A stretch of DNA of 64,000 nt from Gaiellaceae bacterium (lineage in GTDB: Bacteria > Actinomycetota > Thermoleophilia > Gaiellales > Gaiellaceae), in assembly GCA_035535195.1 (NCBI GenBank), contig DATLQK010000026.1:42408-106407 (forward strand), given 5' to 3'. The stretch's first letter is position 1. Each line of letters starts with the position of its first letter. Of this stretch, positions 15,097 to 62,541 are shown in pieces. Under the pieces are notes generated by a model. That model saw only the letters and a list, made by a program, of their open reading frames with translations. It did not search any database and was not told where the DNA came from. The position numbers and the translations under genes are program-made.

Positions 15097-15145
15097 CGAC
15101 CGCCAGCCTGCCACCTTTTTTGGACGGTTCCAACCCGCCGATCGG

Positions 15146-47562: not shown

Positions 47563-47582
47563 TGGGGGAAAGGCTAGCTCCG

Positions 47583-48029
47583 GTGGAAGAGCAGACAGAA
47601 CGAGCACCCTACGAGGCCTACGCCGCAATCGCCGGGGCCTTCCTGGCCGGTCTCGGCGCCGTCTCGGCGCTGTCTCGGCGAGCTCCCCCCGGCACGGCGC
47701 TCGAGCTGGTCGCGCTCTCGGCGGCCACGTTCAAGGCCTCGAGGACGCTCTCGCGCGAGCGCGTGGCGAGCTTCCTCCGCGAACCGTTCGTCGAGGGCGA
47801 GGACGAGCACCCGGCCGGCCAGGGCCTCCAGCGTGCGCTCGGCGAGCTCGTCACCTGCACCCGTTGCGTCGGGACGTGGAGCGCCGCCGCGCTCGCCTCG
47901 ACCCAAATGATGGCGCCCCGCTTCGGGCGCGCGCTCACGTGGACGCTCGCGGCGGGCGCCGCCAACGACTTCCTGCAGGCCGGATTCGCGGCGCTGTGCG
48001 CGAAGGTGAACGAACTGGAGGAAGCCTGA
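47583..48029 (+). CDS. DUF1360-like membrane protein
   Basis: The track ORF starts at TTG 47562. The GTG at 47583 has GGGGGAAAGG 9 nt upstream. [14 protein letters not shown]...[17 protein letters not shown] resembles DUF1360. Confidence 0.6.
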
Positions 48030-48030
48030 C

Positions 48031-51000
48031 CTAGACCGCCGGGCTCAGTTGGCCCTGACGCGCACGGGCTCTCCCCGCGGAGACGATGTTGCCCTTCTCC
48101 TCATAGAGGCGGAGAGCCTCCTCGATCAGCACGGCGGCCTCGTCCGGGCGAACCTCTGCGAGAACGGCGAGCGTGTCAGCGCGCAGATTGACGTCGTCGG
48201 TGCCCCCGGCGATCGCGACGGCCTCTCGCGCGAAACGTTCGCCTTCGCCGACGCGTCCCTGGCCGGCGAGCGCCCGCCCTCGCGTCGAGCGCCAGAGAAT
48301 CTGCGAGAGGTAGTCGTCCGGAGACGCGGTCTCCTCGCTGACGTGAGTCAACCGCTCGGCCTCCTCATGGCGGCCCTGGGCGGAGAGCGCCCTCGCCAGC
48401 CTTGCCGCGACCGAGGATCGGTGTCCGGTCTCGCCGGCTTCCGTCAGCGCTTGGAAGCTCTCGGTCAGATACCGCTCCGCGGCGGCGAGATCGCCGGCGA
48501 GCATCTCGATGATCGCGAATCCCTCGCCGGCAGATTGGACGGCTGCGAATGCGCTCCCGACTTCCTCGAACGCCGCTATGTCCTGCCCGATGAGCCTGCG
48601 GGCGGTCGTAAAATCGCCTCGCATCGCGTGTGCACGGGCGAGGAGCGTCAACAGCCGCCGGTGACCTGGTTCGGTCAACTGCTCCGCGTAGGCGAAAAGC
48701 TCATCGAGCGGGTCGGGGCCGTTCAGGAGCGTATTGCCGATCAATCCACGAGACTCGGCCTCGAGAGCCTCGTCCCCGACCGAAAGGGCCTGCGCGAGTG
48801 TCCGCTCTGCGGCGAGCCGCGCCTTAACGTGGTGGCCGCTGAACCACTGGCAGTGCGCCAGTCTCGCCCAGGCGCGCGCTCGTCCGTCCGCGTCGCCGAT
48901 TTCTTCGAAGACCCGGAGCGCCTCGCGGGCCTCCGCTTCGGCGGCTGCCACGCTGAACGCGGGGTCGACGCGCGTCCGAGCGTGGTCCCGATAGAGAACG
49001 GCGTAGCTGCGCGTTCGGCGGTCACCGGCCGCCTCCGCTCGCTCGACTGCCTCGTCGAGGAGCGCGAGCTCTCGCCGGAAGTCGCCGCACAGGCCGACAG
49101 CGCGCGCGAGATCAGGGAGCAGCCGCACCCGCTCGGGGTCGAGCTCGGCGAGGACTGCGACCGCTCGGGAGAGCAGCGCAGCCGCTCCAGGCCAGTCTGC
49201 GCGCGCGGGAGCTCGGCGACCGGCCGCGGCGAGCAAGCTCGCGGCGCGTCGTCCGAGAGCGACCCCGTGCTCGTCGCCAGGCATCAGCTCCTGCCGATAG
49301 CGGGAGGCTTGTTCCAAGTGATAGCCGACGAGCTCGTCGGGCGCGGCCGCCACCTGGTCCAGCCAGTCGGCGTAGAGCTCGTGTGCGCCGATCCGCGACT
49401 CCTTCGTCATCCCGGCATAGGCCACGTCCCGGACGAGGACGTGCTTGAAGCGGAACGCGTCCTCCGAGCCGGATCGCTCGACGAGCAGGAGCCCGCGACG
49501 GACGAGATTCAGCAACCTGGCGTCGACGCCGTTGAGCTCCTCGGGCGGCGTCAACTGAAGGATCGCCTTCCACGGGCATTCCCGGCCGACGACGGCCGCC
49601 CGTTCGAGCAACGCACGCTCCGACCGCTCGATGCGGTCGAGACGGGCGGCCAGGATCGCCTCGACGGAGGGTGGAACGCGGGTCACGGCGTCCGGTCCAA
49701 CCTCGTCGGCGAGCGCGAGGAGCTGCTCCAGGAAGAGCGGATTCCCTTCGGCGATCCGCACGATCCGCTGCCGGTCCCGACTGGGCAGCTCGGCCGGAGC
49801 GAGCTGGTCGAGCACCAGGCAAGCGGCCTCGGGCTCCAACGGCTCGAGCACGAGGCTCTGCCTGCCGGAGCCCCACCTTGGACGCTGCTCGAGGAGCTCG
49901 GGGCGGGCAAGACAGACGAGCAGCAGCGGCGCCTCCGCCGGCCAGGCGGCGAGATACTCGAGGAGATCGAGCAGGGTCGGCTCTGCCCAGTGGACGTCCT
50001 CGAGCGCCACGACCAGCGCGCCCTCCGCCGCCAGCGCCTCGAGGAAGCGGCGGACGGCCCAGAAGATCTCGCCGGTCGAGGCGGCGCCTTCGGCATCGCC
50101 CGTCAGCTGGGTGACGCGCTGTGCGATCACGGTCGCCTGTTCATCCGCGCCGAGGAGGGCGGCAATGGTCTCGGCAGGTCGAGACGGAGCTGCCTCTGCC
50201 ACGATCTCGGCCAGCGGCAGGAACGTCGCACCGTCGCCGTACGCGGCGCACCTTCCGGTCAAGGCCCGTTCGTCCCCGCCGAGCGAGGCGAAGAGCTCGG
50301 ACAGGAGCCGCGTCTTCCCTACGCCTGGGTCGCCCACCACGGTCACGACCCGGCTCCGACGTTCCGCCCGTACGCCGGCAACGGCGGCACGCAGGAAGGC
50401 CAGCTCGTCCTCTCGACCGACGAACGAAGCGTGTCCGAGCGGCCGTGGAACGGTGCCAACCTCGAGCAGGCGGAACGCCTTAGCGTGCCCAAGGGCGCCG
50501 CCGAGGTCCACCCCCTCGATTGCCTCGGCATCGACGGCATACGAGACGAGCCGGTGCGTCGCCTCTCCGAGCAGGATCTCGCCCGGCATGGCCGCCTCCT
50601 CGAGCCGGACGGCGACATTGACGGCCGTGCCGGTCGCATAGGAGCCCTGTGAAGCGGGATCCGCGGCCAGCACCTCGCCCGTGTTGACCCCGACCCGGAT
50701 CTGGAGGAAGGCTGCGGGCTGCTCGCCGTTCACGGCGTCGATCGCATCCCGGAGCTCTCTCGCCGCACGAACGGCCCGGAGCGCATCGTCCTCGTGCACC
50801 GACGGGATGCCGAACGCGGCCATCACCGCGTCCCCGATGAACTTCTCGACGGTGCCCCCGTGCCGCTCGATCACGCGCTGCGCCACCTCGAAGTAGCGGA
50901 GCATGAGGGTGCGGAGCACCTCCGGATCGAGCGACCCTCCGAGCGCGGTCGAATCGACGACGTCGGCGAAGAGGACCGTCACGGTCTTCCGCCGGTCCTC

Positions 51001-51780
51001 CGCTCGCGCGGGCGCAGACGGCGGCTTCCTTGACGGCGGGGCGTCGAGAGCGGAGTCGTGCCGGAGGATCGCGGCCTCGAGCCGCTTCAGCTCCGGCCAG
51101 GGCTCGATCCCGAGCTCGCCGACGAGCCGCTCGCGGCTCCGGTGGTACACCTTGAGCGCCTCGGCCTGCCGACCCGCCCGATAGAGGCCGAGCATCAGGA
51201 GCGCCGTGGGGCGCTCGCGCAGCGGGTACTCTGCGGCGAGAGCCTCGAGGTCGGCGACTAGCTGGGCATGACGGCCGAGGTCGAGCTCGGCTTCGAGCTG
51301 CTCTTCACGAGCGGCGGCGCGGAGTTCTTCGAGTCGGCCCGCCTCGGCCGCCGCGAACGGACCGAGCTCGACGTCGGCGAGTGGTTCGCCCCGCCAGAGT
51401 GCGAGCGCCGCTCCAAGCAGCCGGACCCGTTCGTCGGGGCCGACGGCTGCCCGTGCATCGTCGACGGCGGCCTCGAACCGCCGGGCGTCGACGGCCTCGG
51501 GCTTGAGCGCGAGCGCGTAGCCGGGCGCCTGAGTGACGAGGACCTGCGGCGAGAGCGACTTCCGGAGATCGGAGATCACGTTCTGAAGCGAAGCCACGGC
51601 CGTCTTCGGCGGGCGCTCACCCCAGAGCTCGTCGATGATCCGATCCCTCGAGATCACCTCTCCCGGCCGCATGGCGAGCAAGGCCAGCACCGCCCGCTGC
51701 TTGCTGCGGCGCAGCTCGAGGCGGCCGGCCGCAACGTCCACCTCGAGCGGCCCGAGCAGGCGCACCTCGACGAGGGACAT
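48031..51780 (-). CDS. SARP(OmpR-wHTH + BTAD) - class III nucleotide cyclase - STAND P-loop ATPase - TPR regulator, copy 1
   Basis: 1249 aa. MSLVEVRLLGPLEV...LALWRGEPLADV...LYRAGRQAEALKVY is the SARP/BTAD part. Cyclase: RKTVTVLFADVVDST...EKFIGDAVMAAFGIPSVHEDDALRAV...RVGVNTGEV...GTAVNVAVRLE. ATPase: VVTVVGDPGVGKTRLL. The roughly 500-aa C-terminus is helical-repeat. Confidence 0.85.
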   Translation of the reverse strand: MSLVEVRLLGPLEVDVAAGRLELRRSKQRAVLALLAMRPGEVISRDRIIDELWGERPPKTAVASLQNVISDLRKSLSPQVLVTQAPGYALALKPEAVDARRFEAAVDDARAAVGPDERVRLLGAALALWRGEPLADVELGPFAAAEAGRLEELRAAAREEQLEAELDLGRHAQLVADLEALAAEYPLRERPTALLMLGLYRAGRQAEALKVYHRSRERLVGELGIEPWPELKRLEAAILRHDSALDAPPSRKPPSAPARAEDRRKTVTVLFADVVDSTALGGSLDPEVLRTLMLRYFEVAQRVIERHGGTVEKFIGDAVMAAFGIPSVHEDDALRAVRAARELRDAIDAVNGEQPAAFLQIRVGVNTGEVLAADPASQGSYATGTAVNVAVRLEEAAMPGEILLGEATHRLVSYAVDAEAIEGVDLGGALGHAKAFRLLEVGTVPRPLGHASFVGREDELAFLRAAVAGVRAERRSRVVTVVGDPGVGKTRLLSELFASLGGDERALTGRCAAYGDGATFLPLAEIVAEAAPSRPAETIAALLGADEQATVIAQRVTQLTGDAEGAASTGEIFWAVRRFLEALAAEGALVVALEDVHWAEPTLLDLLEYLAAWPAEAPLLLVCLARPELLEQRPRWGSGRQSLVLEPLEPEAACLVLDQLAPAELPSRDRQRIVRIAEGNPLFLEQLLALADEVGPDAVTRVPPSVEAILAARLDRIERSERALLERAAVVGRECPWKAILQLTPPEELNGVDARLLNLVRRGLLLVERSGSEDAFRFKHVLVRDVAYAGMTKESRIGAHELYADWLDQVAAAPDELVGYHLEQASRYRQELMPGDEHGVALGRRAASLLAAAGRRAPARADWPGAAALLSRAVAVLAELDPERVRLLPDLARAVGLCGDFRRELALLDEAVERAEAAGDRRTRSYAVLYRDHARTRVDPAFSVAAAEAEAREALRVFEEIGDADGRARAWARLAHCQWFSGHHVKARLAAERTLAQALSVGDEALEAESRGLIGNTLLNGPDPLDELFAYAEQLTEPGHRRLLTLLARAHAMRGDFTTARRLIGQDIAAFEEVGSAFAAVQSAGEGFAIIEMLAGDLAAAERYLTESFQALTEAGETGHRSSVAARLARALSAQGRHEEAERLTHVSEETASPDDYLSQILWRSTRGRALAGQGRVGEGERFAREAVAIAGGTDDVNLRADTLAVLAEVRPDEAAVLIEEALRLYEEKGNIVSAGRARARQGQLSPAV

Positions 51781-51872
51781 CCGTTCAATTGAACACCCGA
51801 GTCAGTAGGACTTACAACTCCGGATGAGTGCCGTGTGAGTGCGGTGTGATCGCCGACTGCGACCGTGGACGC

Positions 51873-52043
51873 ATGAGCTTGGCCGAGGAAGCGCAGCGGT
51901 ATCTCGCAGTGGTGGAGGCCTTCCGCGCCGCCGGGTGTGCGCCCCGGTGGCGAGCGGAAGCATGCGGCGACGCCGCCCGGCGGCCTGCGAGCACCGCTGC
52001 GCTGAAGCGGGCCGCCCCACCCGTCCCGAGGAGAAGGCACTAG
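51873..52043 (+). CDS. conserved 56-aa protein S1, partner of regulator copy 1
   Basis: MSLAEEAQRYLAVVEAFRAAGCAPRWRAEACGDAARRPASTAALKRAAPPVPRRRH. It has the same length as the 60716..60886 product, and 18 of the first 26 residues are identical. It is divergent from the regulator. Confidence 0.5.
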   Translation: MSLAEEAQRYLAVVEAFRAAGCAPRWRAEACGDAARRPASTAALKRAAPPVPRRRH

Positions 52044-52106
52044 AAAGCCGGGGAGGGGCCGCGGACGGCGAGCCGGATGCGGCCTCCGGCTCGCCGCATT
52101 CTACGA

Positions 52107-53648
52107 CTAGGCCGTCGGTCCGGGCGACTGTCGCCACCACCCGAACAACCGACGGAGATCCCGGCCGTATGCCGCCGAGTAGATGTCCCGCCGGGCATCG
52201 GTCCACTCCATGCCCGCCCAGCCGTTCCGCCGATAGCAGAGAAACCGTCCACTTGACGTGTCACCGCGGCGGAGCCGGTCACTGTGTCCGGTTTCCCCCG
52301 CGGGTTTCCAGGCACCGATCGCCTGTGAGTCCGGACCGCACCGCGCTAGAGCGCGGACAGGCTCCCCCGGCGTTGCCAGTTGCTCGCCGAATGCCTGTTC
52401 TAGGAAGTACGCGCGCATCCGGTTGCCGCTCTTGGCGAGGTTGTACTCGACTCGATCCACCTCGCGCGTCCCGAGCCGGCACAGCATCCGAGAGTCGAAG
52501 TCCGGCGTCAGCGGCTCGGTCGGCCGGCAACGGCCCCGAATAGGGGCCGGAATTCGTTGCAACAGAATCTCATCGTTCAGCGTGAGCGTCGTGCCTTCGG
52601 CAGCGATCACTTGCGGCTCGTCACCGATCACGGCGTACGCAATGGCCCCCACAGCGCCCGCGACGAGTAGGGCGCCCAAGATCCCGAGTGCCGGAAGGAG
52701 ACGCGGAGCATTCCTGCTGCGGCGCGGCTGCCGCACGGTCGTTGGCACAGGGGCTTCGCCATTGACCTCGCCGACAGTCCTTCCCGCGTACGTCGCCGCA
52801 GCCGCGGAGCCGAGGACATGCCGTAGGGCGGCGACCAACTCCCGACAGGAGCCGTACCGCTGTTCCGGGTCCTTCGCCATCGCCTTCGCGAGCACGCCGT
52901 CGACCTCGCGCGGGAGGTCGGGCCGGAGCTCCGACAGCAGCGGCGGCTCCTCGCGCATGTGCGCCCACAGCACCGCGACCTCGGTCTCCCGGCGGAAGGG
53001 CGTCGCTCCGGCGAGTGACTCGAAGATCACGCAACCGAGCGAGTAGATGTCGGTCCGGGCGTCGACCTCCCGACCTTCGATCTGCTCCGGCGACATGTAG
53101 TCGATCGTCCCGACGAACTGACCGGACGCGGTGATCCCGCTTCTCGACTCGAGATGCTTGGTCAGGCCGAAGTCGGCGAGATAGGCGATCGGCGGTGCGT
53201 CCGGCTCACCGGGCTCGACAAGGATGTTCGCCGGCTTGACGTCGCGGTGGAGCAGTCCCCTCGCGTGCGCCACGTCGAGAGCGCTGCCGACCTGCGCCGC
53301 GACCGCGATCGCGTGGTCCGGCGCGAGCGGGCCGTCCCGCCGGAGCTGCGCCTTCAGGTCGCCCTCGACCCAGCGCATCGCGATGTAGAGGACGCCCTCC
53401 CAATCGCCTGCGTCGTAGATCGGGACGATGTTCGGGTGGTTGAGGGAAGCCGCGGTCCGCGACTCTCGCACGAAACGCTCGCGGAAGCTCTCGTCCTCGG
53501 CGAGCTCCTCCGCCAGGAGCTTGAGCGCGACCTTGTTTCCCAGGCGAACGTTCTCGGCCCGGTAGACGACGCTCATCCCACCGCGTCCGAGAAGGGACTC
53601 GATCCGATACCCGGCGAACTCCGTGCCGATCCGCGGCACAACCGCCAT
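52107..53648 (-). CDS. transmembrane Ser/Thr protein kinase with extracytoplasmic C-terminal domain
   Basis: 513 aa. Hanks motifs GRGGMSVVYRA, VALK, HRDVKPANIL, DFGLTK, YMSPEQ. TM helix LLPALGILGALLVAGAVGAIAYAVIG. The roughly 175-aa external domain is unassigned. Confidence 0.88.
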   Translation of the reverse strand: MAVVPRIGTEFAGYRIESLLGRGGMSVVYRAENVRLGNKVALKLLAEELAEDESFRERFVRESRTAASLNHPNIVPIYDAGDWEGVLYIAMRWVEGDLKAQLRRDGPLAPDHAIAVAAQVGSALDVAHARGLLHRDVKPANILVEPGEPDAPPIAYLADFGLTKHLESRSGITASGQFVGTIDYMSPEQIEGREVDARTDIYSLGCVIFESLAGATPFRRETEVAVLWAHMREEPPLLSELRPDLPREVDGVLAKAMAKDPEQRYGSCRELVAALRHVLGSAAAATYAGRTVGEVNGEAPVPTTVRQPRRSRNAPRLLPALGILGALLVAGAVGAIAYAVIGDEPQVIAAEGTTLTLNDEILLQRIPAPIRGRCRPTEPLTPDFDSRMLCRLGTREVDRVEYNLAKSGNRMRAYFLEQAFGEQLATPGEPVRALARCGPDSQAIGAWKPAGETGHSDRLRRGDTSSGRFLCYRRNGWAGMEWTDARRDIYSAAYGRDLRRLFGWWRQSPGPTA

Positions 53649-53697
53649 GTCGCCGGTTGTAACACAGTTCTGACAGCGGTTCTATCCTCGGTGGCCG

Positions 53698-54537
53698 ATG
53701 TCGAGGCAGCCGCCGCCGACCCCCAGAGCCGGCATGCGCCTCGGCCCGTACCTGCTCGAGAGTGTCCTCGGCGAGGGCAGCATGGGCATCGTCTTCCGAG
53801 CGAGCCACGAGAACGGAACCGTCGTCGCCCTCAAGGTGCTCCGGCCGGAGCTTTCGCACGACGACGGGTACCGCCGACGATTCGAACGGGAAGGCCGCAT
53901 CGCGTCTGGCCTTGCCCACCGGCACCTCGTCGAGGTCGTGGACACGGGCGAGGCCGACGGCTGGACCTATCTGGCGTCGCGCTACGTCGCCGGCGAGTCG
54001 CTCGCCGAGCGTCTCGGCCGCGAAGGGCCTATGCCCGTCGACGAGGTGGTGCGGCTGGCCGGCGAGGTCGGCACCGCCCTCGACACGCTTCACGCGAGCG
54101 AGCTCGTCCACCGCGATGTGAAGCCGTCGAACGTGATGCTGGCGGAGAGCGGCGCCGAGCTCACCGACTTCGGCGTCGCCCGAGGGACCGCCGACACTGT
54201 GCTCACGGCGCCGGGACGGGTGGTCGGAACGCTGGACTACCTGGCGCCCGAGGTCATCCGGGGGCAGCCGGCCGAGGCCCCCGCAGACGTCTATGCGCTC
54301 GGGTGCCTTCTGTACGAGTGCATCGCGGGACAGCCTCCATTCGGGTCCCGGCCGTTCGCCGAGGCCGCTGTCGCGCACCTGTCGGAGGAGCCACCCGACC
54401 CCTCCCCCACTCGCGGCGACCTCCCGCGCCAGTTCTGGACCGCGCTGCGGCACGGGCTGGCCAAGGATCCCGACGACCGCCCGCCGACGGCCACCGCCTA
54501 CGCGCTCATGCTCCGGGTCTCAGCGCGACCGAGCTAG
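53698..54537 (+). CDS. soluble Ser/Thr protein kinase (kinase domain only)
   Basis: 279 aa. GEGSMGIVFRA, VALKVL, HRDVKPSNVM, DFGVAR, YLAPEV. No TM segment. Confidence 0.85.
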   Translation: MSRQPPPTPRAGMRLGPYLLESVLGEGSMGIVFRASHENGTVVALKVLRPELSHDDGYRRRFEREGRIASGLAHRHLVEVVDTGEADGWTYLASRYVAGESLAERLGREGPMPVDEVVRLAGEVGTALDTLHASELVHRDVKPSNVMLAESGAELTDFGVARGTADTVLTAPGRVVGTLDYLAPEVIRGQPAEAPADVYALGCLLYECIAGQPPFGSRPFAEAAVAHLSEEPPDPSPTRGDLPRQFWTALRHGLAKDPDDRPPTATAYALMLRVSARPS

Positions 54538-54864
54538 CTCTGTCCTGATCTCCTCGAGCAGGCGCTCGATCCGGTCCGCCTGCGCGGCGAGCCGCTCCGC
54601 CGCACGCTCCAGCTTCCGCGTCGCCGCGTCCGACCCAGCGCGTCGGGGCTCGGGCTCGTCGGACACGAAGTAGCTCAGCGGCTTGCCCGTCGCCTCGGCG
54701 ACGAGACGGAGCACGTCGAGATCGGGTGTCGTCGCCCCACGCTCCCACCGGGAGACCGTGATCGGCTCGACCTCGACCTCTGAGGCGAGCTCTCGCTGCT
54801 TCCAGCCCCTTGCGGCGCGAGCCTGCCGAATCCGACCGCCGAGCTCCGGGTCTCTGGTCGCCAT
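54520..54864 (-). CDS. XRE-family helix-turn-helix regulator with coiled-coil tail
   Basis: 114 aa. LGGRIRQARAARGWKQRELASEVEVEPITVSRWERG is HTH_3-like. C-terminal heptads: RKLERAAERLAAQADRIERLLEEI. TATTCT lies 7 nt upstream of the ATG and there is no SD. Confidence 0.8.
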   Translation of the reverse strand: MATRDPELGGRIRQARAARGWKQRELASEVEVEPITVSRWERGATTPDLDVLRLVAEATGKPLSYFVSDEPEPRRAGSDAATRKLERAAERLAAQADRIERLLEEIRTELARSR

Positions 54865-54990
54865 AGACAGGAGAATAACAGATTAAGGCTAGTCTTTACC
54901 TAATCATTACAGAGCTAGTCTTGAATAATCATAACTTGCCTACTAATCTGGCTAGTCATTAAGTGGCTAGTTCCAGGAAGGAGGCGAGGG
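54865..54990. promoter_or_regulatory. AT-rich divergent promoter/operator island with four GCTAGT boxes
   Basis: About 37% G+C over 110 nt by hand count, in a roughly 70% GC genome. Boxes RGCTAGTY start at 54887, 54913, 54950 and 54965. The first two lie in a 26-nt direct repeat GCTAGTCTTnAnnTAATCATnAC. Sigma70-like pairs on the plus strand: TTGAAT-N17-TAATCT and TTGCCT-N17-TTAAGT. Confidence 0.55.
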
Positions 54991-55077
54991 ATGTTCCGCA
55001 AGCAGCTTTTCATTCTGCTCCTCAGCGTCGCAGGGGCGCTGTCGCTCGCGAACCTCGGTGGCGGCGGCGGGCCCTAG
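54991..55077 (+). CDS. 28-aa signal-peptide-like micro-ORF
   Basis: MFRKQLFILLLSVAGALSLANLGGGGGP. A strong SD, GGAAGGAGG, lies 6 nt upstream of the ATG. A 15-bp terminator hairpin follows 19 nt after the stop. It is below the track cut-off. Confidence 0.4.
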   Translation: MFRKQLFILLLSVAGALSLANLGGGGGP

Positions 55078-55095
55078 GCCGCCGCCGCACAGTGC

Positions 55096-55125
55096 GCACG
55101 GAGAGCCCGGCCGGGCTTTCCGTGC
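55096..55125. terminator. bidirectional hairpin between the micro-ORF and regulator copy 2
   Basis: GCACGGAGAGCCCGG/CCGGGCTTTCCGTGC: 15-nt complementary arms with one G-T wobble. It is 3 nt from the regulator stop (55129) and 19 nt from the micro-ORF stop. Confidence 0.5.
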
Positions 55126-55128
55126 TGT

Positions 55129-58100
55129 CTAAACAGCGCTCAGCTCGGCGAAAAGGGCTCTGGCCCGGCGTCCGGACGCGCTGTCTCCCTTCCGCTCGAA
55201 CAGTTCGAGCGCCTCCTCCACTCGACCGGCAGCAGGCATCGGCCGACCGCCAAGCCGGAGAACTTCGGCCACATCGAGCAACACGGCCCCGTGGTCGGAG
55301 ACCGCATCCGTGCTCTGGACGATGCGCAGGCCCTCGAGGACGAGCGCTTCACCTTCCTGCGTCCGCCCCTGATGCGCGAGCAGCTTGCCCTTCAGGCTCC
55401 TCCACGAGAACTGCGCGATGATGTCGCCCTTCGGACAGCGCCGCTCAGCAAGATCGCTCCAGTCCGCTGCCTCCGCGTAGCGGCCCTGGTCGTAGAGAGC
55501 CTGTCCGAGCCAGGCGGCGATCGTCGCAAGAGCGGTTTCGTCGTTCACGCGCTCGAAGGTCTCGCAGCACTCGCGGAAGACGGATTCGGCCGCCGCCGAG
55601 TCCCCGGCGAGGTCGTGGACGCGCCCTCGGATTCGCCCCGAGTTGTTCGCGAGCGAGTAGAGCTCACCGAGCTCGGTGTAGATCTCATCAGCCTTGTCGA
55701 GCGCGTCGAACGCCTCGTCGAACCGCTCCGCGAGCCCCTGGAGGCCGCCGAGAAAGACCAGCACCCCGGCTGACCCGGACAGATCGCTCGTTTCCTCGAG
55801 TAGCCGCTCGCAACGGTCGATTGCGGCGGGCACCGGTATCGGACCATGGAACAGGGCGGTCGCGAGCTCGGAGAGACACCCCGAGGGCGACCAGTCGGTC
55901 CGGCGGTAGTGGACGAGTGCACGCTCGGATGCCTCCATCCAGTCCGCACAGCGCCCCTCCATCGATCCGCGGACATAGCCGACGAGTCGCCACGCCCTGC
56001 CGAGAGCCCGGTCGTCAGCGTGCTCTTCGAAGACGGGTACGGCTTCGTCGAGCAGCGCAAGGAGGAGCGACGGATCGGCTTCGGGGTCGGTGAAGAGACG
56101 GCCGTACCCGAGCTCGATTCGCGCTCGCAGCGCGAGGCGCCGGTCGCCCGCGTTCTCGGCATCGCCGAGCGCTTCGGTCAATGCCTCGTCGCTCCCCTGC
56201 GCGTCGCCGAACCAGCGCCGGGCGATCCCGAGCTCGCAGAGCAGCTCCACCCGGTTGGCGTCCTGTCGCTCGAGCAGTGACGTGGCACGGCTCAGCAAGT
56301 TCATCGTCGCTCGAAGGTCCGCGCGCTTCCAGCTGCGCATTCCTGCAGCAGCCAGACGCCCTCCCGCCGCATCCGCCAGCGGACGGAGCCGCGGGTCCGC
56401 CGGCCGAAGCTCGGCCCAGTAGTCATGTGCCTGCTCGAGGTGGTAGCCGACGATCTCGTCTCTGCCGTCGCGCTGACCGAGCCACGTCCCGTACCGCTCG
56501 TGGAGGTCTGCCCGCGCGCTCTTCGTCATCCCCGCGTAAGCGACGTCCCTGATCAGCACGTGGTGGAAGTGCGCGTCCTCGTCGTCGCCTCGCAGTCCGC
56601 GGACCAAGCCTCGACGCGCGAGCGCCGCCAGCCTTCGGTCGAGCCCGGGGAGCGTCTCCGGCGGAGACAGCGCCACGAGGGCGCTCCGCGAGAAGTCGCG
56701 ACCGACGACCGCAGCGCGCTCGAGGAGCGCACGCTCGTCCGGCTCCAGGCGGTCGAGGCGGCCCGCGAGCAGCGCCTCAACGGTCGGCGGGACTGCCGCG
56801 AGCGACTCGGGGCCGGCGTCCTCGGCAAAGGCCAGCAACTGCTCGAGAAAGAGCGGGTTGCCTTCGGCGACGTGGACGATCCGGGACAGTGCCGTTTCGT
56901 CGAGATCCGCGCCGATATCAGCCACCAGCCGTTCGGACTCGTCGTCAGTCAGCGGCTCGAGTGCGAGCAGACCCTTCTCGCTGCCCCAGCCGGGTCGTTG
57001 CTCCAGGAGCTCGCTCCTGGCGAGACAGAGGACGAGCAGCGGTGCGTCGGCTCTCCAGGCGGCGAGGTACTCGATCAGGTCGAGGAGCGTCGGCTCGGCC
57101 CAGTGGATGTCCTCCAGGACGACGACGAGCGGCCGTCCGAGGGCCAAGGCTTCGAGGAACCGGCGCACCGCCCAGAACACCTCTCCCGTGGACGCGGCGC
57201 CCTCGGCGGGATCGGCCAGTTGCGCAACTCGCTCCGCGATCAGCGGCCCCTGGTCGTCGCCGAGGAACAGCCTGGCGATCGCCTCCCGCGGGCGCTCCGG
57301 GGCAGCTTCACGGACGATGTGGGCGAGCGGCAGGAAGGTCGCTCCCTGCCCGTAGGAGACGCAGCGGCCGACGAGCGCCCACGCGCCCGTGCTCGCCACG
57401 AACTCCTTCGCCAGCCGGCTCTTGCCCACGCCGCCGTCGCCGAGGACGGTGACGACACGACTATGCCGCTCGGCCTGGACGCCCGCGAACGCCGCTTGCA
57501 GCCATGCCAGCTCGCTCGTCCGCCCGACGAGCGTCGTGCCGACGAGCGGGCGGCTGGCTTCCACCACCTTCTGAAGCCGGAAGGCGGGAGCTCGGCCGAG
57601 GGCCGCTCCGACGTCGACCGGATCGACCGGCTCGCCTTGCGCCGTGTTGCGAACGAGCGCCCAGGTCGCCGCGCCGAGGAGAATCTCGCCCGGCAGCGCC
57701 GCCTCTTCTAGCCGCATGGCGACGTGCACCGGCCCGCCGGTGACGAATGCCGCTCCTGAGTCAGGATCGCTCGCCACCACCTCACCGGAGTTGACCCCGA
57801 CCCGCAATTGCAGGGCGATGCCGTGCGCCTCGGTGAGCTCCGAATTCAGCTCTTCGATGCTGTCGCGCAGGTCCACGGCCGCGCGCACCGCGCGCAACGC
57901 GTCGTCCTCGTGGACGGTGGGGACGCCGAAGACGGCCATCGCCGCGTCGCCGATGAACTTCTCGAGGACACCGCCGTGACGCTCCACGGCGCTCGTGACT
58001 GCGCCAAAATAGCGCCGCATCACACCGCCGAAGACCTCGGGATCCAGTCGCGCGGCGAGATCGGTCGAGTCGACGACGTCGGCGAAAAGGATCGTGACGC

Positions 58101-58857
58101 TCTTTCGTCGCTCGGGCTCCGCCGACACGGGAGCAGGGCCCTTCCCCGGCCCGACCGACGGGTCGTGCCGAAGGATCGCCTGCTCGAGCTCGTTGAGCTC
58201 GGCCGACGGCTCGAGCCCCAGCTCCTCGACGAGAATCGCACGCGTCTGGCGGTAGAGCTCGAGGGCGTCGGCCTGTCTGCCGGACCGGTAGAGGGCGAGC
58301 ATGAGCTGGGCGCGCGGCCGCTCGCGCAGCGGGTGCTCGGCGACGAACGCCTCCAGCTCAGGGACGAGGTGAGCGTGCCGTCCGGACGCCAACTCGGCGT
58401 CGAAGAGCTCTTCGCGGGCCGCCGTCTTGAGCTCTTCCAGCCGGGCGATCTCCATCGGCGCGAACGGCTCGTCGGCGACGTCGGCGAGGGCGGGGCCACG
58501 CCAAAGCTCGAGGGCCTCGCGGAGGTCGGTTCCTTCGCGGACGGCCCGTTCGAACCGATGGGCGTCCACGAACCGGGGGTCCAGCTCGAGCACGTAGCCG
58601 GGCGACCGTGTAACGAGGACGTCGGGGCCGATCAGCCTGCGAAGCTCGGAAACCAGGTTCTGCAGCGAGCCGACTGCGGATTTCGGAGGTGTCTCGCCCC
58701 AGAGCTCCTCCACGAGACGGTGGGTCGACACGACTTCGCCGGCGTGCAGCGCGAGCAGTGCGAGTAGCGCGCGCTGCTTCTTCCGGCGCACGGGGACCGG
58801 CTCGTGGTCGCGGGCAAGCGCAACCGGGCCGAGGAGTTTGACCTCGACAAGAGACAT
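55129..58857 (-). CDS. SARP(OmpR-wHTH + BTAD) - class III nucleotide cyclase - STAND P-loop ATPase - TPR regulator, copy 2
   Basis: From the ATG at 58857: MSLVEVKLLGPV...LELWRGPALADV...LYRSGRQADALELY. Cyclase: RKSVTILFADVVDST...EKFIGDAAMAVFGVPTVHEDDALRAV...RVGVNSGEV. ATPase: VVTVLGDGGVGKSRL. TPR-like C-terminus. It is collinear with copy 1. Confidence 0.85.
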   Translation of the reverse strand: MSLVEVKLLGPVALARDHEPVPVRRKKQRALLALLALHAGEVVSTHRLVEELWGETPPKSAVGSLQNLVSELRRLIGPDVLVTRSPGYVLELDPRFVDAHRFERAVREGTDLREALELWRGPALADVADEPFAPMEIARLEELKTAAREELFDAELASGRHAHLVPELEAFVAEHPLRERPRAQLMLALYRSGRQADALELYRQTRAILVEELGLEPSAELNELEQAILRHDPSVGPGKGPAPVSAEPERRKSVTILFADVVDSTDLAARLDPEVFGGVMRRYFGAVTSAVERHGGVLEKFIGDAAMAVFGVPTVHEDDALRAVRAAVDLRDSIEELNSELTEAHGIALQLRVGVNSGEVVASDPDSGAAFVTGGPVHVAMRLEEAALPGEILLGAATWALVRNTAQGEPVDPVDVGAALGRAPAFRLQKVVEASRPLVGTTLVGRTSELAWLQAAFAGVQAERHSRVVTVLGDGGVGKSRLAKEFVASTGAWALVGRCVSYGQGATFLPLAHIVREAAPERPREAIARLFLGDDQGPLIAERVAQLADPAEGAASTGEVFWAVRRFLEALALGRPLVVVLEDIHWAEPTLLDLIEYLAAWRADAPLLVLCLARSELLEQRPGWGSEKGLLALEPLTDDESERLVADIGADLDETALSRIVHVAEGNPLFLEQLLAFAEDAGPESLAAVPPTVEALLAGRLDRLEPDERALLERAAVVGRDFSRSALVALSPPETLPGLDRRLAALARRGLVRGLRGDDEDAHFHHVLIRDVAYAGMTKSARADLHERYGTWLGQRDGRDEIVGYHLEQAHDYWAELRPADPRLRPLADAAGGRLAAAGMRSWKRADLRATMNLLSRATSLLERQDANRVELLCELGIARRWFGDAQGSDEALTEALGDAENAGDRRLALRARIELGYGRLFTDPEADPSLLLALLDEAVPVFEEHADDRALGRAWRLVGYVRGSMEGRCADWMEASERALVHYRRTDWSPSGCLSELATALFHGPIPVPAAIDRCERLLEETSDLSGSAGVLVFLGGLQGLAERFDEAFDALDKADEIYTELGELYSLANNSGRIRGRVHDLAGDSAAAESVFRECCETFERVNDETALATIAAWLGQALYDQGRYAEAADWSDLAERRCPKGDIIAQFSWRSLKGKLLAHQGRTQEGEALVLEGLRIVQSTDAVSDHGAVLLDVAEVLRLGGRPMPAAGRVEEALELFERKGDSASGRRARALFAELSAV

Positions 58858-58952
58858 CTGTCTCAAATTGAACACCCTCGGCGCCTACGGCGCATAGACG
58901 CAGATGAGCCACGGGTGAGGGCTGCATGAGCGGCCGAGCGCAGCCTGGACGC

Positions 58953-60719
58953 ATGAAGATTCTCTTGACAGCCCTGGCGGCATTGATCGTGGCGGCGCCC
59001 GCAGCGGCGGCGCCACCCCCGAACGACAACCGCGCCGACGCGCAGCAGGTTCCGACCTTTCCCTCTTCGGCGCACGGCTCGACGGTGGAAGCGACGACCG
59101 AGAGGCTCGACCCGCAGGTCTCCAAGTGCGGACGGGTCGACGCGACCGTCTGGTACCGAATCGACGCCGCGCCCGATGGCACGATCGTCGCGACGGCCCA
59201 GGCGGCGGGACAGCTCGCACCGGTCGTGCGGCTCTACCGGCGCTTGCAGTCGAGCATCCAGGAGGTCTCCTGCAGCACTGCCAAGGCAGGAGGCAAGGCG
59301 ATCGCGTCAGTCGCCGCCGTTCGCGGAGCGGGCTACCTGATCCTCGTCGGCCGCCGTCCCGGCGCAGCCGACGGCGAGTTCGATCTCCGGGCAGATCTGG
59401 TTCTGCCGCCGGAAAACGACGAGCGCGGCGAGGCGGCTCGCGTCGGCCGGCTCCCCGCGACGGTGCGCGGCACCACCCTCGGCGCCACGAGCGACGACTA
59501 CCGCGACTGCGGAATGAGCGGCGGCGGCGTCTGGTACCGGTTCCAAGGACCGGCGACCGGCCGGGCGCTGGTTCAACTCGACACGGGCCAACGCAGCGGG
59601 GCCGTGGCGGTCTTCCGCCGCTCTCGCGGGAGCGTGGAGGAGCTCGGGTGCGCGGCGACCGATCGCCGGGGCGGCTTGACCGCCGGCTTCGCAGCGAAGC
59701 CGGGCGCGGACTATCTGATTCTGGTCGGCGACAGGGCCGGCTCGAGCCCCGGCGCATTCGTGCTCAGGATTCGGGCGGGCGAGGCTCCGGAGCATCTGCC
59801 CGGACGCGCCCTTCCGCACGGCGGCGCGCGTGGCTCCGTCGACGGCCTCAGCGACGTCAACGATGTCTGGTCGGTCCGGATGCGGCCCGGCCGGACATAC
59901 CGGATCGCGTTCGCCTCGACTCCATGCGCGCAGCTGAGCATTCGACGTGCGAGCAAGACGCTGCGGCGCTTCTCCTGCCGCGGCTACACGAGCTTCACGC
60001 CCGGCCCCGACGGCGGCGGCCGCTACGCGGTCGAGGTCCGGGCCTCGGGCTACTCGGGACGCCAGAGGTACCGGCTCCAGGTCGTCGCGGCGGGGACCGA
60101 CGACATCGGCGTCGGTCTCGAGCTAGCCGCCGGATCGATCCACCGCGGCAAGCTGTCGCCGTCGGGCGTCGACGTCCTCGACCTTTACCACTTCGACGTC
60201 GCGCGGCTGAGCGAGGTGCGGCTGGATCTCGCCCGCGGCGCTGGGCGATCGTTCTCGCTCGTCCTGCTCACCGACACGGGACAGCGGATCGCGACCGGCC
60301 AGACCGGCGTGCGCCGCCGGCTCGGCCGCGGTCGTTATGTCGTAGCCGTCGAGGCGCCTCCTGGTACGGAAGCAGGCCGCTACCGCCTGGCGCTCAGGCT
60401 CCGCGACGTCACGTCCACGACCGTCCTCGTCTCGGGCTCGCGCTCGGCCGAGGTCACCCCCGGATCGGTCGTCTCGATCTCATGCAGCGTGTCCCCGGCG
60501 ACCACCGGTGGGCGGATCGAGCTCCAGATCGACCGCTTCGACCCCCTTACCGGCTGGCACTTCCACCGCAAGATCCGAATCGCCGCCGGCTCGGCGCTGT
60601 CGTGGCGGCCGCCCACGGCCGGACGTTGGCGCGTGCGGGCGCGGTTCCTCGGCACCCGCGGCTCGGCGCCCAGCCGCAGCGGCTATGCGCAGATCGTCGT
60701 CGCGAGGCCGATCGGATGA
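58953..60719 (+). CDS. secreted multi-domain beta-sandwich protein (two PPNDN-type modules, PPC-like modules)
   Basis: The ATG at 58953 gives MKILLTALAALIVAAPAAAAPPPNDN, a signal peptide. Two modules share the pattern P-[PE]-ND..A....G.T.GAT...........VWYR[IF]. Later repeats resemble pre-peptidase C-terminal domains (DVLDLYHFDV...LVLLTDTGQRI). No catalytic motif was seen. Confidence 0.7.
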   Translation: MKILLTALAALIVAAPAAAAPPPNDNRADAQQVPTFPSSAHGSTVEATTERLDPQVSKCGRVDATVWYRIDAAPDGTIVATAQAAGQLAPVVRLYRRLQSSIQEVSCSTAKAGGKAIASVAAVRGAGYLILVGRRPGAADGEFDLRADLVLPPENDERGEAARVGRLPATVRGTTLGATSDDYRDCGMSGGGVWYRFQGPATGRALVQLDTGQRSGAVAVFRRSRGSVEELGCAATDRRGGLTAGFAAKPGADYLILVGDRAGSSPGAFVLRIRAGEAPEHLPGRALPHGGARGSVDGLSDVNDVWSVRMRPGRTYRIAFASTPCAQLSIRRASKTLRRFSCRGYTSFTPGPDGGGRYAVEVRASGYSGRQRYRLQVVAAGTDDIGVGLELAAGSIHRGKLSPSGVDVLDLYHFDVARLSEVRLDLARGAGRSFSLVLLTDTGQRIATGQTGVRRRLGRGRYVVAVEAPPGTEAGRYRLALRLRDVTSTTVLVSGSRSAEVTPGSVVSISCSVSPATTGGRIELQIDRFDPLTGWHFHRKIRIAAGSALSWRPPTAGRWRVRARFLGTRGSAPSRSGYAQIVVARPIG

Positions 60720-60886
60720 CGGTCGCAGAAGAAGCACAGCTGTATCTCGCGGTCGTCGAGGTCTTTCGGGCCGAGGGCCACGAACCGCACTGGCAACCGG
60801 AGTGGCTGGTGCCTCCGGTGCCGCGCCCCTGGTCTGCGCAGCCGAAGCCGCTGCGCCTCGACCGCAACAAGCAAAGGAGGAAGTGA
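60716..60886 (+). CDS. conserved 56-aa protein S2, paralogue of S1
   Basis: MTVAEEAQLYLAVVEVFRAEGHEPHWQPEWLVPPVPRPWSAQPKPLRLDRNKQRRK. Its ATG overlaps the upstream stop (ATGA), and its TGA overlaps the next ATG (TGATG). Confidence 0.5.
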   Translation: MTVAEEAQLYLAVVEVFRAEGHEPHWQPEWLVPPVPRPWSAQPKPLRLDRNKQRRK

Positions 60887-62541
60887 TGAGACGGATTCGG
60901 ATGCGAATCCCGATGCTCGTGGTGGTGCTGACGGCGGCGCTCCTGACAGGAACCGCCGCCGCCGCGGCGCCGGACAACGACAACTTCGCCTCGGCGGCCG
61001 AGCTGCAGGGTCGCGAGGCGTCCGCGTCCGGGACGAACAAGGACGCGACCAAGGAGGCTGGCGAGCCGAACCACGTCGGAAAGGCCGGAGGCGCCTCGGT
61101 CTGGCACCGGTGGACGGCGCCGGCGAGCGGGAAGGCGACGATCTCGACCTGCGACAGCGACTTCGACACGCTGCTCGCGGTGTATACGGGCAGCGCGCTC
61201 AACGCCTTGACCGAGGTCGCCGCCAACGACGACGCGACGTGCGACCTGGCGAGCTCCGTCTCGTTCCAGGCCGCGAAGGGCGAGACGTACCGGATCGCGG
61301 TCGACGGCGTCGCCGGCGATGTCGGGACGTACCACCTCCTGCTCCGGCTCGCGCCGCCGAACGACGACTATGCAGACGCGGTCACCTTGTCCGGTGACCA
61401 GGGGGCCGTTGACGGCACGACGGCCGGCGCCTCCCGCGAGCCTGAGGAGCCGGACTACCTCACTCGCTCTGTCTGGTACCGCTGGACCGCGCCCTCGACG
61501 GGGTGGGCGACCTTCGAGGCCTGCGGAGGTGCGCTACGCCCCGGGCTCGCGGCGTACACAGGCACCACGCTCGCGACGCTCCAGTGGGTCGACTCGCATT
61601 ACAACGAGTGCGCCGACGGGGCTGCCCGGATCGCGTTCGCCGCGACCGAAGGCGTCATCTACAGCCTTGTGGTGGACAGCTACGAGGACACCGGTGACTT
61701 CGCGCTGGCATGGAACCGGAACGCGCCACCGCCGGATGGACCTTTCAACGAGGTCGAGCCGACGATCACGGGCAGCGCCCGCGTCGGTGAGACGCTCACC
61801 GGTTCAGACGGAGAATGGTTCGGGACTCCGCCGCTCTCGCTCACCTACTCGTGGTGGCAGTGCGGTACCGGCGGGTGCAATCGAATCGCCGGTGCGACGG
61901 CGAAGTCGTACGTTCCGACGAACGCTGACATCGGCAGGCGCCTCTACTTCCAAGTGATCGCGTCGAACGCGGCCGGCTCCGACTACGCCTTCTCGGAAGG
62001 CACCGCGCCCGTGCGCTCCCGTGGTCCGGCGCTCGTCTCCCCGCCGAGGGTGAATGGGGTGGCGCGAGTCGGTCTCCTGATCGACGCGGCCTCTGGCGCC
62101 TGGAGCGGTATGCAGCCGATCCAGTACGGGTACCAGTGGCAGCAGTGCGATGCCGCCGGGGCCAACTGCCGCGACCTCCCGAACGAGATCGGCATCGTGT
62201 TCGAGGTCGGGCGGGCGCACGTCGGCTCACGGCTGCGCGTCGTCGTCACGGCGACGAACGTCGACGGTTCTGTGTCGGCCACGTCCGAGCCGACCGCCGT
62301 CGTGCCGAAGCCGCGGGCGACACGGGCGGCCCGCTGTCTCGTGCCGAACGTCCGCGGACGAACCCTCTTGCGGGCCAAGGCCCTAATCCGGCGCGCAGGT
62401 TGCGTCACTGGATCGGTCAGACGCGCCTTCTCGAGCTCGATGCGCCGCGGTCGGGTGCTCTCGCAGACACCTCGGGCGGGAGCCCGGGCCCGCCGCGGCG
62501 CCAAGGTCAAGCTCGTCCTCAGCAAGGGAGCTAAGCGATGA
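60886..62541 (+). CDS. secreted protein: two PPNDN-type modules, two Ig-like repeats, C-terminal PASTA-like domain
   Basis: From the ATG at 60886 (SD AAAGGAGGAAG): MRRIRMRIPMLVVVLTAALLTGTAAAAAPDNDNFA...EAGEPNHVGKAGGASVWHRWTAP...FDTLLAVYTG...AANDD. Repeats G..RVGETLTGSDGEW.G.PP...TYSWWQC / GVARVGLLIDAASGAWSG.QP..YGYQWQQC. Tail: CLVPNVRGRTLLRAKALIRRAGC..G.V...RGRVLSQTPRAG...GAKVKLVLS. Confidence 0.8.
   Translation: MRRIRMRIPMLVVVLTAALLTGTAAAAAPDNDNFASAAELQGREASASGTNKDATKEAGEPNHVGKAGGASVWHRWTAPASGKATISTCDSDFDTLLAVYTGSALNALTEVAANDDATCDLASSVSFQAAKGETYRIAVDGVAGDVGTYHLLLRLAPPNDDYADAVTLSGDQGAVDGTTAGASREPEEPDYLTRSVWYRWTAPSTGWATFEACGGALRPGLAAYTGTTLATLQWVDSHYNECADGAARIAFAATEGVIYSLVVDSYEDTGDFALAWNRNAPPPDGPFNEVEPTITGSARVGETLTGSDGEWFGTPPLSLTYSWWQCGTGGCNRIAGATAKSYVPTNADIGRRLYFQVIASNAAGSDYAFSEGTAPVRSRGPALVSPPRVNGVARVGLLIDAASGAWSGMQPIQYGYQWQQCDAAGANCRDLPNEIGIVFEVGRAHVGSRLRVVVTATNVDGSVSATSEPTAVVPKPRATRAARCLVPNVRGRTLLRAKALIRRAGCVTGSVRRAFSSSMRRGRVLSQTPRAGARARRGAKVKLVLSKGAKR

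Follow-up and report, generated by a model that had tools for sequence, protein, structure and literature searches.

We analysed a 64-kb stretch of DNA from a Gaiellaceae bacterium (hereafter the window; G+C content about 70%), whose proteins have their nearest named relatives in Gaiellaceae metagenome-assembled genomes (Thermoleophilia, Actinomycetota). Within it we identified two paralogous regulators, P1 (1249 aa; 48031..51780, - strand) and P2 (1242 aa from the ATG of MSLVEV; 55129..58857, -), each of which combines an N-terminal SARP head with a class III cyclase homology domain (CHD), an AAA_16 NTPase and TPR-like repeats. The best explanation of these proteins, and on balance a modestly probable one, is that they are STAND-type transcription activators of a Gaiellaceae-rich family, in which the TPR region acts as the sensor. 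Judging from the predicted operators, the target of P1 is most likely a small cytoplasmic protein, S1, and that of P2 the translationally coupled operon Sec1-S2-Sec2, which encodes a second small protein between two secreted ones.

To our knowledge, SARPs are known almost only as activators of antibiotic clusters in Streptomyces. In this large family of uncultured soil Thermoleophilia, the SARP head and its promoter geometry appear to have been reused for a small protein and for secreted surface proteins, and the presence of a cyclase domain in members of the SARP family is a combination without a studied SARP counterpart. The predicted operators, -10 elements and leaderless starts are precise and can be tested cheaply.

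Domain architecture and family of the two regulators

Two open reading frames (ORFs) of about 1245 aa had been predicted at these positions; both were confirmed there on the - strand, and the encoded proteins aligned end to end with 50% identity. Pfam returned the predicted order of domains, Trans_reg_C, BTAD, Guanylate_cyc, AAA_16 and TPR_12, identically in P1 and P2. In P1, the winged helix-turn-helix (wHTH; about aa 1-95, 51496..51780, -) and BTAD (aa 97-239, 51064..51492, -) were located by Pfam, a PDB sequence search and AlphaFold2 (AF2) modelling, and the CHD (aa 263-420, 50521..50994, -) by Pfam, with known cyclases matching aa 260-420 in the PDB search. The AAA_16 domain (aa 453-622, 49915..50424, -) and the TPR-like region (about aa 831-1249, 48034..49290, -) were located by Pfam. 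P2, recognised by its ORF, Pfam and alignment, contains BTAD at 58171..58539, the CHD at 57616..58116 (aa 248-414) and AAA_16 at 57031..57531 (aa 443-609), all from Pfam and on the - strand; a possible GTG extension of P2 to 58875 has no counterpart in P1.

The matches to BTAD (E 2.5e-40) and Trans_reg_C (E 1.2e-09), found in both proteins, are those of the SARP family, and Guanylate_cyc scored above the gathering score in each regulator (E 2.6e-19 and 4e-16). AAA_16 was matched at E 1.7e-22 and 1.2e-20, with the Walker A and B sequences GDPGVGKT and LVVALEDVHW in P1 and GDGGVGKS and LVVVLEDIHW in P2, followed by helical repeats, as in STAND NTPases. Neither NB-ARC nor GerE/LuxR was matched in the Pfam scan of P1 and P2, the C-terminal ends of which are TPR.

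Sequence and structural modelling show that the SARP head is AfsR/EmbR-like, in line with the AfsR-like head of the original prediction. The AF2 model of P1 aa 1-445 (pLDDT 91) has two domains joined by a disordered linker at aa 253-260. Its SARP part superposed on AfsR (8k60_I) with a TM-score of 0.90, a root-mean-square deviation (rmsd) of 1.9 A and 43% identity, and on EmbR over the SARP region with an rmsd of 2.2-2.5 A, while Foldseek matched its CHD part to Ma1120, Rv1900c, CyaB and Cya2 with TM-scores of 0.85-0.91. In the PDB sequence search, which returned AfsR and EmbR, phmmer matches to AfsR chains (E about 1e-40) covered aa 8-254 only. The NCBIfam AfsR equivalog NF053617 likewise covered aa 7-263 only, at 200 and 189 bits against a cutoff of 1430, and P1 and P2, which have AAA_16 in place of the NB-ARC nucleotide-binding domain, fall outside this equivalog.

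The earlier description of the proteins as AfsR with a spliced-in cyclase was therefore not upheld: the likeness to AfsR ends at aa 263, the NTPase is of another type, and the remaining domains are common without the head. We surveyed species-representative genomes, of which the best 80 loci were considered, and a metagenome set of 80 further loci (loci are numbered below with the prefix L). CHD-NTPase-TPR proteins without a SARP head accounted for 57 ORFs in the best 80 genome loci, in Actinomycetota, Chloroflexota, Dormibacterota and others, and this SARP-less CHD-AAA_16-TPR form was the commonest relative in the surveyed genomes; the SARP fusion was found in only three of the 80. A neighbour-joining tree of the CHD and NTPase core placed 39 of 44 SARP-fused sequences in one pure clade. 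The core of P1 and P2 (aa 264-835) additionally matched positions 285-894 of TIGR03903, a kinase/cyclase fusion of TOMM systems, at E 2e-55; this family shares the CHD and AAA_16 core but has an N-terminal Hanks kinase instead of SARP, and the score of 188 bits lies below its cutoff of 705. Since CHD-AAA_16-TPR is widespread without SARP, the SARP head looks like the added part, indicating that P1 and P2 probably represent a widespread CHD-STAND-TPR chassis with an acquired SARP head, rather than AfsR with an acquired cyclase.

The fused architecture is nonetheless abundant in databases, with thousands of homologues, yet unstudied. In a protein collection, 7964 of 8000 scored candidates matched at E <= 1e-20, and the best 120 matches were all SARP-CHD-AAA_16(-TPR) proteins of about 1240-1310 aa. 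Their source names are only "BTAD domain-containing putative transcriptional regulator" or "class 3 adenylate cyclase". We found no paper naming both Pfam BTAD and Guanylate_cyc and no characterised SARP-cyclase fusion in the literature searched, in line with the original prediction. Further CHD-AAA_16 genes lie only a few kb from SARP-CHD genes (L166 1..253, L171 11694..12135, and a 32.9-kb contig) and have either a different N-terminal module (zinc ribbon/DUF7577) or no such module, and the chassis appears strongly expanded in these genomes.

The joining of a cyclase, a STAND NTPase and a DNA-binding domain in one polypeptide is itself already known, because Rv0386 of Mycobacterium tuberculosis combines a cyclase domain, a STAND NTPase and a LuxR-type HTH. 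Cyclases of the CHD-AAA_16-TPR(-LuxR) type, for example Rv0386, Rv1358 and Rv2488c, are reportedly treated in work by Castro et al. in 2005 and Shenoy et al. in 2004. Proteins of the Rv0386 type resemble P1 and P2 in having a class III CHD directly before an AAA_16-type STAND NTPase, helical repeats and a DNA-binding domain; they differ, in a comparison made by description, in that this domain is a C-terminal LuxR HTH rather than an N-terminal SARP, GerE being unmatched in P1 and P2.

A second set of relatives are the SARP-LAL regulators of Streptomyces (PimR, SanG, FilR/PteR) and PolY, which have, like P1 and P2, an N-terminal SARP followed by an ATPase and TPR. The published definition of SARP-LAL comprises SARP and an AAA ATPase half, without a cyclase signature and without the LuxR HTH (PMC10972967). 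P1 and P2 lack a LuxR HTH but keep a complete CHD between BTAD and the NTPase, and are thus outside the class. Moreover, SARP-LALs control antibiotic clusters, whereas no such cluster is present among the scanned ORFs of the P1/P2 locus. Our data offer a testable origin for the "guanylate-cyclase-like" half of the SARP-LAL regulators.

Phased repeats and the divergently transcribed genes

The intergenic regions that separate P1 and P2 from their divergent neighbours each contain three RTGA[GT] pentamers in exact 11-bp phase. Pattern scans placed candidate SARP operator 1 (ATGAG / GTGAG / GTGAT) at 51824..51850 (+), facing S1, and candidate SARP operator 2 (ATGAG / GTGAG / ATGAG) at 58904..58930 (+), facing Sec1. 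These are the only two occurrences of the triple-repeat pattern in 64 kb, against 0 expected by chance. The triple repeat was also found in L081, L082, L166, L167, L168, L170, L171 and L173, in which the spacers and flanks diverge. In nine of the ten loci, 22-23 nt separate the last pentamer from the ATG of the divergently transcribed gene, a spacing that is constant whether that gene encodes S, Sec1 or a DMFA2_C protein.

Positions 11-16 of this 22-23-nt stretch are always [CG]A...T (GACCGT, CAGCCT, CACGGT, CATCGT, GATGCT etc.), giving an NANNNT hexamer 8 bp past the last heptamer and 6-7 nt before the ATG. In the window, the -10-like hexamers are GACCGT (51861..51866, +), 6 nt before the S1 ATG, and CAGCCT (58941..58946, +), 6 nt before the Sec1 ATG at 58953. 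In the published rule for SARP promoters, the repeats lie 11 or 22 bp apart and the 3' repeat 8 bp from the -10, which is weak in afsS (CACTGT) (PMC10936776). Both window sites match this geometry in their sequence, and leaderless transcripts are predicted because the hexamer lies only 6-7 nt from the start codon. The exception is L173, in which a 40-nt stretch carries a Shine-Dalgarno sequence, GGAAGGGAGG, without counterpart in the other loci; it would thus provide an internal control for the leaderless spacing.

Repeats in 11-bp phase also precede more distant SARP-CHD genes (35-52% identity), but with motifs of their own (CTAAC, GCTGAA, GCTCAA and GCTAAAG). Exact 5-mer self-matches upstream of SARP-CHD genes numbered 44 at offset 11, in 12 of 18 non-redundant loci, compared with 0-12 at the other offsets between 6 and 18 and three in a coding control.

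The arrangement recalls PimR, the operator of which consists of three heptameric direct repeats with 4-bp spacers in the divergent pimR-pimM intergenic region, and does not overlap the -35 (PMC3367932). PimR was compared by description; its repeat motif is CGGCAAG, as opposed to RTGAG at P1 and P2, and both have three repeats between divergent genes. The afsS promoter similarly has 11-bp repeats that end 8 bp from a weak NANNNT -10, although two repeats are present there rather than three, and the P1 and P2 sites differ in the predicted leaderless transcript. AfsR itself shares with P1 and P2 the logic of SARP, STAND NTPase and TPR, a small ORF as adjacent target and Hanks kinases nearby; it differs in having NB-ARC rather than AAA_16 and in lacking the additional CHD. 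While afsS lies downstream of its regulator, S is divergent or embedded in an operon.

The predicted 56-aa partner proved to be present twice, as S1 (51873..52043, +), divergent from P1, and as S2 (60716..60886, +), in the operon divergent from P2. Differences between S1 and S2 fall 3/8/17 on codon positions 1/2/3 over 29 codons, and those between S2 and its L082 orthologue 4/2/14. A profile search with S returned 136 clusters of 44-82 aa, all hypothetical and none with a Pfam domain, and S itself matched nothing in Pfam and NCBIfam. Only the first 29 or so residues are conserved (M-T/S-x-AEEAQ-x-YL-x-VVE-x-FR-x-x-G-x-x-P-x-W), to which S2-type copies add PEW..PPV.RP and a basic tail. The position of S1 beside a P1-type gene is repeated in L081 and L082, supporting, together with the codon-position pattern, its identification as a gene.

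As a separate observation, a single base distinguishes the initial 87 nt of the S1-type ORF in the window (51873..51959) from those in L082 (about 2445..2531, -), while the neighbouring SARP-CHD proteins are only 73% identical; the conservation of S1 is beyond what coding constraint alone explains. A known RNA element in the conserved 5' part of S was considered and rejected, as an Rfam scan of 47000..64000 at E <= 0.1 returned nothing and the codon-position pattern is that of coding sequence.

Downstream of candidate operator 2, the operon divergent from P2 begins with Sec1 (58953..60719, +; 588 aa), followed by S2 and Sec2 (60886..62541, +; 551 aa). The S2 start overlaps the Sec1 stop (ATGA), and the S2 stop overlaps the Sec2 start (TGATG). 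With three S proteins as starting points, we found the order Sec1 (588 aa), S and a gene for a secreted protein at 7/7 places examined, mostly with overlapping stop and start codons. The third gene is Sec2-like (about 552 aa, with Ig-like domains and, where complete, PASTA) in six of the seven, and in L171 encodes a 963-aa cadherin-like protein. Wherever Pfam data were on record (four places), the gene divergent from this operon encodes SARP-CHD-AAA_16-TPR, and many database matches of S, Sec1 and SARP-CHD have identical lengths recorded for their longest contig, an indirect sign of co-occurrence. These comparisons indicate that S is a real gene that recurs with SARP-CHD regulators, and the linkage of the small ORF anticipated for a neighbourhood survey was borne out for regulators of the P1 and P2 clades. 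S-profile searches placed S in these two clades only, and more distant SARP-CHD loci lacked it, which makes S a target specific to these clades and not a partner of the whole family. The proposed analogy with AfsK, AfsR and AfsS stands in part: the small ORF as adjacent target is, from these sequence comparisons, better supported than it was from a single sequence, and the kinase link is weak.

Sec1 matched no Pfam domain, and its 404 homologues, all named "hypothetical", occur in Gaiellaceae. The AF2 model (pLDDT 85) contains about five tandem beta-sandwich domains, and the best fold match was the collagen-binding tandem domain of ColG (5iku, E 3e-9), consistent with a secreted all-beta protein. 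An alternative Sec1 start at 58926 was rejected, as the start at 58953 gives the signal peptide MKILL, the length of the orthologue (588 aa in the JGI gene call) and the fixed operator spacing. In Sec2, Pfam identified a C-terminal PASTA domain (E 3.3e-11) and weak matches to PPC and IG_AIR9, giving a PPC-like and Ig-like architecture.

A further element precedes the SARP genes themselves. The motif GGTGTTCAAT is invariant 6-11 nt upstream of the start codon in all SARP-CHD genes of the P1 and P2 clades; in the window it lies 7 nt upstream of the P1 start (51788..51797, -), within a 12-bp palindrome, GTTCAATTGAAC, and about 9 nt upstream of the P2 start (about 58866..58875, -). Its spacing, 6-7 nt in most loci, suggests a -10 of the SARP gene's own leaderless mRNA; its hexamer TTCAAT is without A at position 2, which counts against this role.

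The cyclase homology domain and the output of the regulators

In a phmmer search the CHD matched 2w01 at E 5.5e-21, as expected for the class III cyclase fold, and we placed the canonical residues by alignment to Cya2, CyaB and CyaC. P1 has the complete catalytic set (D273, K313, D317, N388, R392), and P2 the same set except for His in place of the transition-state Asn. Of the sequence blocks predicted for both proteins, LFADVVDST, KFIGDA.MA.FG, VGVN[TS]GEV and GD.GVGK[TS]RL are common to the two, and VNVA.RLE is present in P1 (VNVAVRLE) but not in P2 (VHVAMRLE). Thus, the cyclase fold and the catalytic Asp/Asn/Arg set on which the original prediction depended were recovered in P1, and the Asn was not in P2. 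Identity in the CHD is 61-89% per pair, on a par with the wHTH, BTAD and NTPase, which together with the AF2 model indicates that the CHD is a folded domain under selection.

The two metal-binding Asp, the substrate Lys and the transition-state Arg are present in P1, P2 and 97-99% of 121 relatives. Expressed as raw sequence counts, uncorrected for phylogeny, unfused CHD-NTPase proteins (n=149) retain Asp1 in 147, Lys in 148, Asp2 in 149, Asn in 142 and Arg in 146; the closest SARP-fused proteins (n=121) in 117, 118, 119, 86 and 120, respectively; and the SARP-fused loci (n=19) in 17, 14, 16, 9 and 15. In close orthologues of P2 the Asn site is occupied by H, Q, T or N, and varies between H and Q even at 92% identity. 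The relaxation of the catalytic Asn also distinguishes SARP-fused forms from the Rv0386 type. We consider cyclic nucleotide (cNMP) synthesis doubtful for P2, because the Asn is missing and the site is relaxed in SARP-fused but not in unfused forms, and our reading of these sequences is that catalysis may no longer be required in many SARP-fused members, P2 included.

The second purine-specifying residue, canonically Asp or Thr seven residues before the Asn, is non-canonical throughout the family ([FYL]-[AV]-T-G). The loop that carries it is about six residues shorter than in canonical cyclases, and the specifying position is Tyr in one HMMER alignment and Ala in the other. Non-canonical purine-specifying pairs can still be active, as in Rv1900c and Rv0386.

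The mechanism that we favour, that of a STAND-type activator, is drawn by analogy with AfsR, MalT and PolY. Ligand at the TPR region and ATP at AAA_16 would release or oligomerise the protein, after which SARP protomers would align along the repeats and bring in RNA polymerase. Since the operator motif is shared and the TPR regions are very different (33% identity), P1 and P2 probably respond to two distinct signals with an output of the same kind. P1, which keeps D-K-D-N-R, may still make a cyclic nucleotide when its CHDs pair on oligomerisation, while in P2 and many SARP-fused relatives the CHD would more likely bind nucleotides or mediate dimerisation. In the CHD-AAA_16-TPR chassis, the cyclase looks like an ancestral effector that is in the course of being superseded by the SARP head. 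The series from intact to Asn-less CHDs provides a natural set for studying STAND control of a class III cyclase and the change from enzyme to scaffold.

Several points weigh against this interpretation. The two window sites served to define the operator pattern, and the loci that share it are related, so that the counts are not independent. The -10 assignment depends on two invariant bases in a GC-rich genome whose promoters are undescribed, and the repeats could be there for the SARP gene to regulate itself and not for control of the divergent gene. With a non-canonical purine-specifying residue, the substrate of the CHD, and even the activity of P1, cannot be read from sequence. Finally, the support for the operator, the starts and the enzymatic role is comparative throughout.

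We also considered that P1 and P2 are primarily signal-regulated cyclases, as reported for Rv0386, with cNMP as the main output and the SARP head serving to tether or autoregulate the protein. The wide distribution of SARP-less CHD-AAA_16-TPR proteins with an intact catalytic set is consistent with this, as are the retention of D, K, D, N and R in P1, the conservation of the CHD at the level of the other domains, and a GAF-domain protein encoded nearby (43229..45559). It is nevertheless rather unlikely, as the Asn is relaxed specifically in SARP-fused members and varies between close P2 orthologues, a complete SARP-type promoter at fixed spacing faces the divergent gene, and no conserved cNMP-receptor gene was found in the examined neighbourhoods.

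An extension of the activator model, speculative and distinctly less than probable, would have the regulators make a second messenger at their own promoter: STAND assembly on the three-repeat operator, driven by ligand and ATP, would both recruit polymerase through the SARP heads and pair the CHDs into active sites, S, as a constant member of the regulon, might feed back on the TPR region, and SARP-LAL could be the end point of cyclase loss. If this were true, activation of the target gene and a local cNMP pulse would be one event, and the "guanylate-cyclase-like" half of the SARP-LAL antibiotic regulators would be explained by loss of the cyclase in their lineage.

Locus history, the kinase module and neighbouring genes

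Between P1 and P2 we identified, as predicted, two kinases and an XRE-family regulator, matched by Pfam to Pkinase, Pkinase and HTH_3 at the three intervening genes. K1 (52107..53648, -) is a receptor-type Hanks Ser/Thr kinase with one transmembrane segment and an extracellular tail of about 170 aa without a Pfam match. K2 (53698..54537, +), divergent from K1, is a soluble Hanks kinase that consists of the kinase domain only, and its 3' end overlaps the XRE gene (54520..54864, -; 114 aa). Both kinases are syntenic in L081, L167 and L168.

The sole SARP-CHD gene of each of L166, L167 and L168 falls into one group with P2 (62-64% identity), and those of L082 (73%) and L083 (63%) into another with P1, identity between the two groups being about 50%. 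In L167 and L168, the order of genes is MFS, followed further on by the secreted operon and, divergently, SARP-CHD, then a tiny ORF, XRE, K2, K1, DUF1360 and uvrB. The window and L081 carry P1 and S1 as an extra module between K1 and the DUF1360 gene; the latter lies between P1 and uvrB (47562..48029, +), encodes a membrane protein, has syntenic counterparts in L081 and L167 and shows where the module was inserted. In L082, a P1-type module lies between an MFS gene and a Sec2-like gene. Synteny thus indicates that P2 is the resident gene and P1 with S1 the extra module. The view of the locus as a duplicated island was not supported in this form, as P1 and P2 belong to separate old subclades with different locus placements, and the pair is therefore not a recent tandem duplication. 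We additionally noted a mosaic relationship between P1 and L083, in which the TPR region (48034..49290) is 84% identical and the wHTH, BTAD, CHD and NTPase 46-62% (NTPase 46%); this suggests exchange of the sensor domain among paralogues.

The XRE-K2-K1 module adjoins a P2-type gene in the window, L081, L167 and L168, and an XRE gene lies downstream of the P2-type gene in L081, L167, L168 and L170. The module is absent at the P2-type L166, at the P1-type L082 and at L083-85, and no kinase was found in the flanks of more distant SARP-CHD loci, many of which are short. Among the 80 genome and 80 metagenome loci, kinases were present only at L010, L017 and L081, and the kinase module at only 2 of the 80 CHD-STAND genome loci. 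Recurrent kinase linkage, which had been expected of the neighbourhood survey, is thus confined to P2-type loci, and common descent is enough to explain it, since uvrB, DUF1360 and MFS genes are likewise common to the genomes that have the module.

These distributions bear on an AfsK/AfsR-like phosphorelay, in which K1 and/or K2 would phosphorylate P2 (and P1) and gate its activity. The adjacency of the module to P2-type genes favours such a relay, and a Hanks kinase fused to CHD-AAA_16-TPR is a known architecture (TIGR03903), a weak Rosetta-stone hint. AfsR is phosphorylated by AfsK, but the phosphorylation had little effect on activation (PMC10936776). Given also the missing module at several related loci, its common descent with the surrounding genes and the lack of FHA or any other phospho-reader domain, we regard a phosphorelay as a minority possibility. 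XRE, the tiny ORF, K1 and K2 are best described as a neighbouring module, any control of which over P2 would be hypothetical.

It is very improbable that the locus is an anti-phage defence system, with a STAND sensor, a Pycsar-like cyclase, defence kinases and a CapH-like repressor. PADLOC did match PycC on the CHD (<=56 bits), PD-T4-6 and mad6 on the kinases and capH on the XRE protein, but these matches are generic: the CHD scores 70 bits to Pfam Guanylate_cyc, and the kinases strongly match a PknB-type model. No gene for a cNMP-activated effector, as in Pycsar, is present in the locus, which is chromosomal and syntenic beside uvrB across genomes, and the regulators have a complete transcription-activator head with a cognate predicted operator.

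Control of a secondary-metabolite cluster in the Streptomyces style, the usual role of SARPs including the SARP-LALs PimR, SanG and FilR (PMC10972967), is less probable still, as no polyketide synthase, non-ribosomal peptide synthetase or other biosynthetic gene was found in the 21 Pfam-scanned window ORFs (the largest and most of the island genes), the neighbours are uvrA, uvrB, subtilases, a phosphodiesterase, permeases and an MFS transporter, and the conserved predicted targets are S and secreted beta-sandwich proteins.

Other features of the window were noted in passing. The tiny ORF of the XRE module encodes a hydrophobic 28-aa product, MFRKQLFILLLSVAGALSLANLGGGGGP (54991..55077, +), and is preceded by a strong ribosome-binding site, GGAAGGAGG. 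It is divergent from XRE across an unusually AT-rich region (54865..54990) with repeated GACTAG[CT]C and ATGATTA. The ORF is a called gene in L081, L167 and L168, and the orthologues there have 27-29 aa and the same Gly-rich C-terminal end; XRE could control it, and its product could be a small peptide that is secreted or located in the membrane. The GAF-domain protein mentioned above (+ strand, beside uvrB) combines HD-GYP, GAF and GGDEF domains and is conserved in L081 but not in L167; should P1 be an active cyclase, the GAF domain could act as a cyclic-nucleotide receptor. Three secreted subtilases (Peptidase_S8) are encoded at 9509..11596, 13102..15249 and 20274..22847 (all -), one of which has a C-terminal PASTA domain, as Sec2 does. 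PASTA on secreted proteins that are neither kinases nor penicillin-binding proteins seems to recur in this Gaiellaceae bacterium genome.

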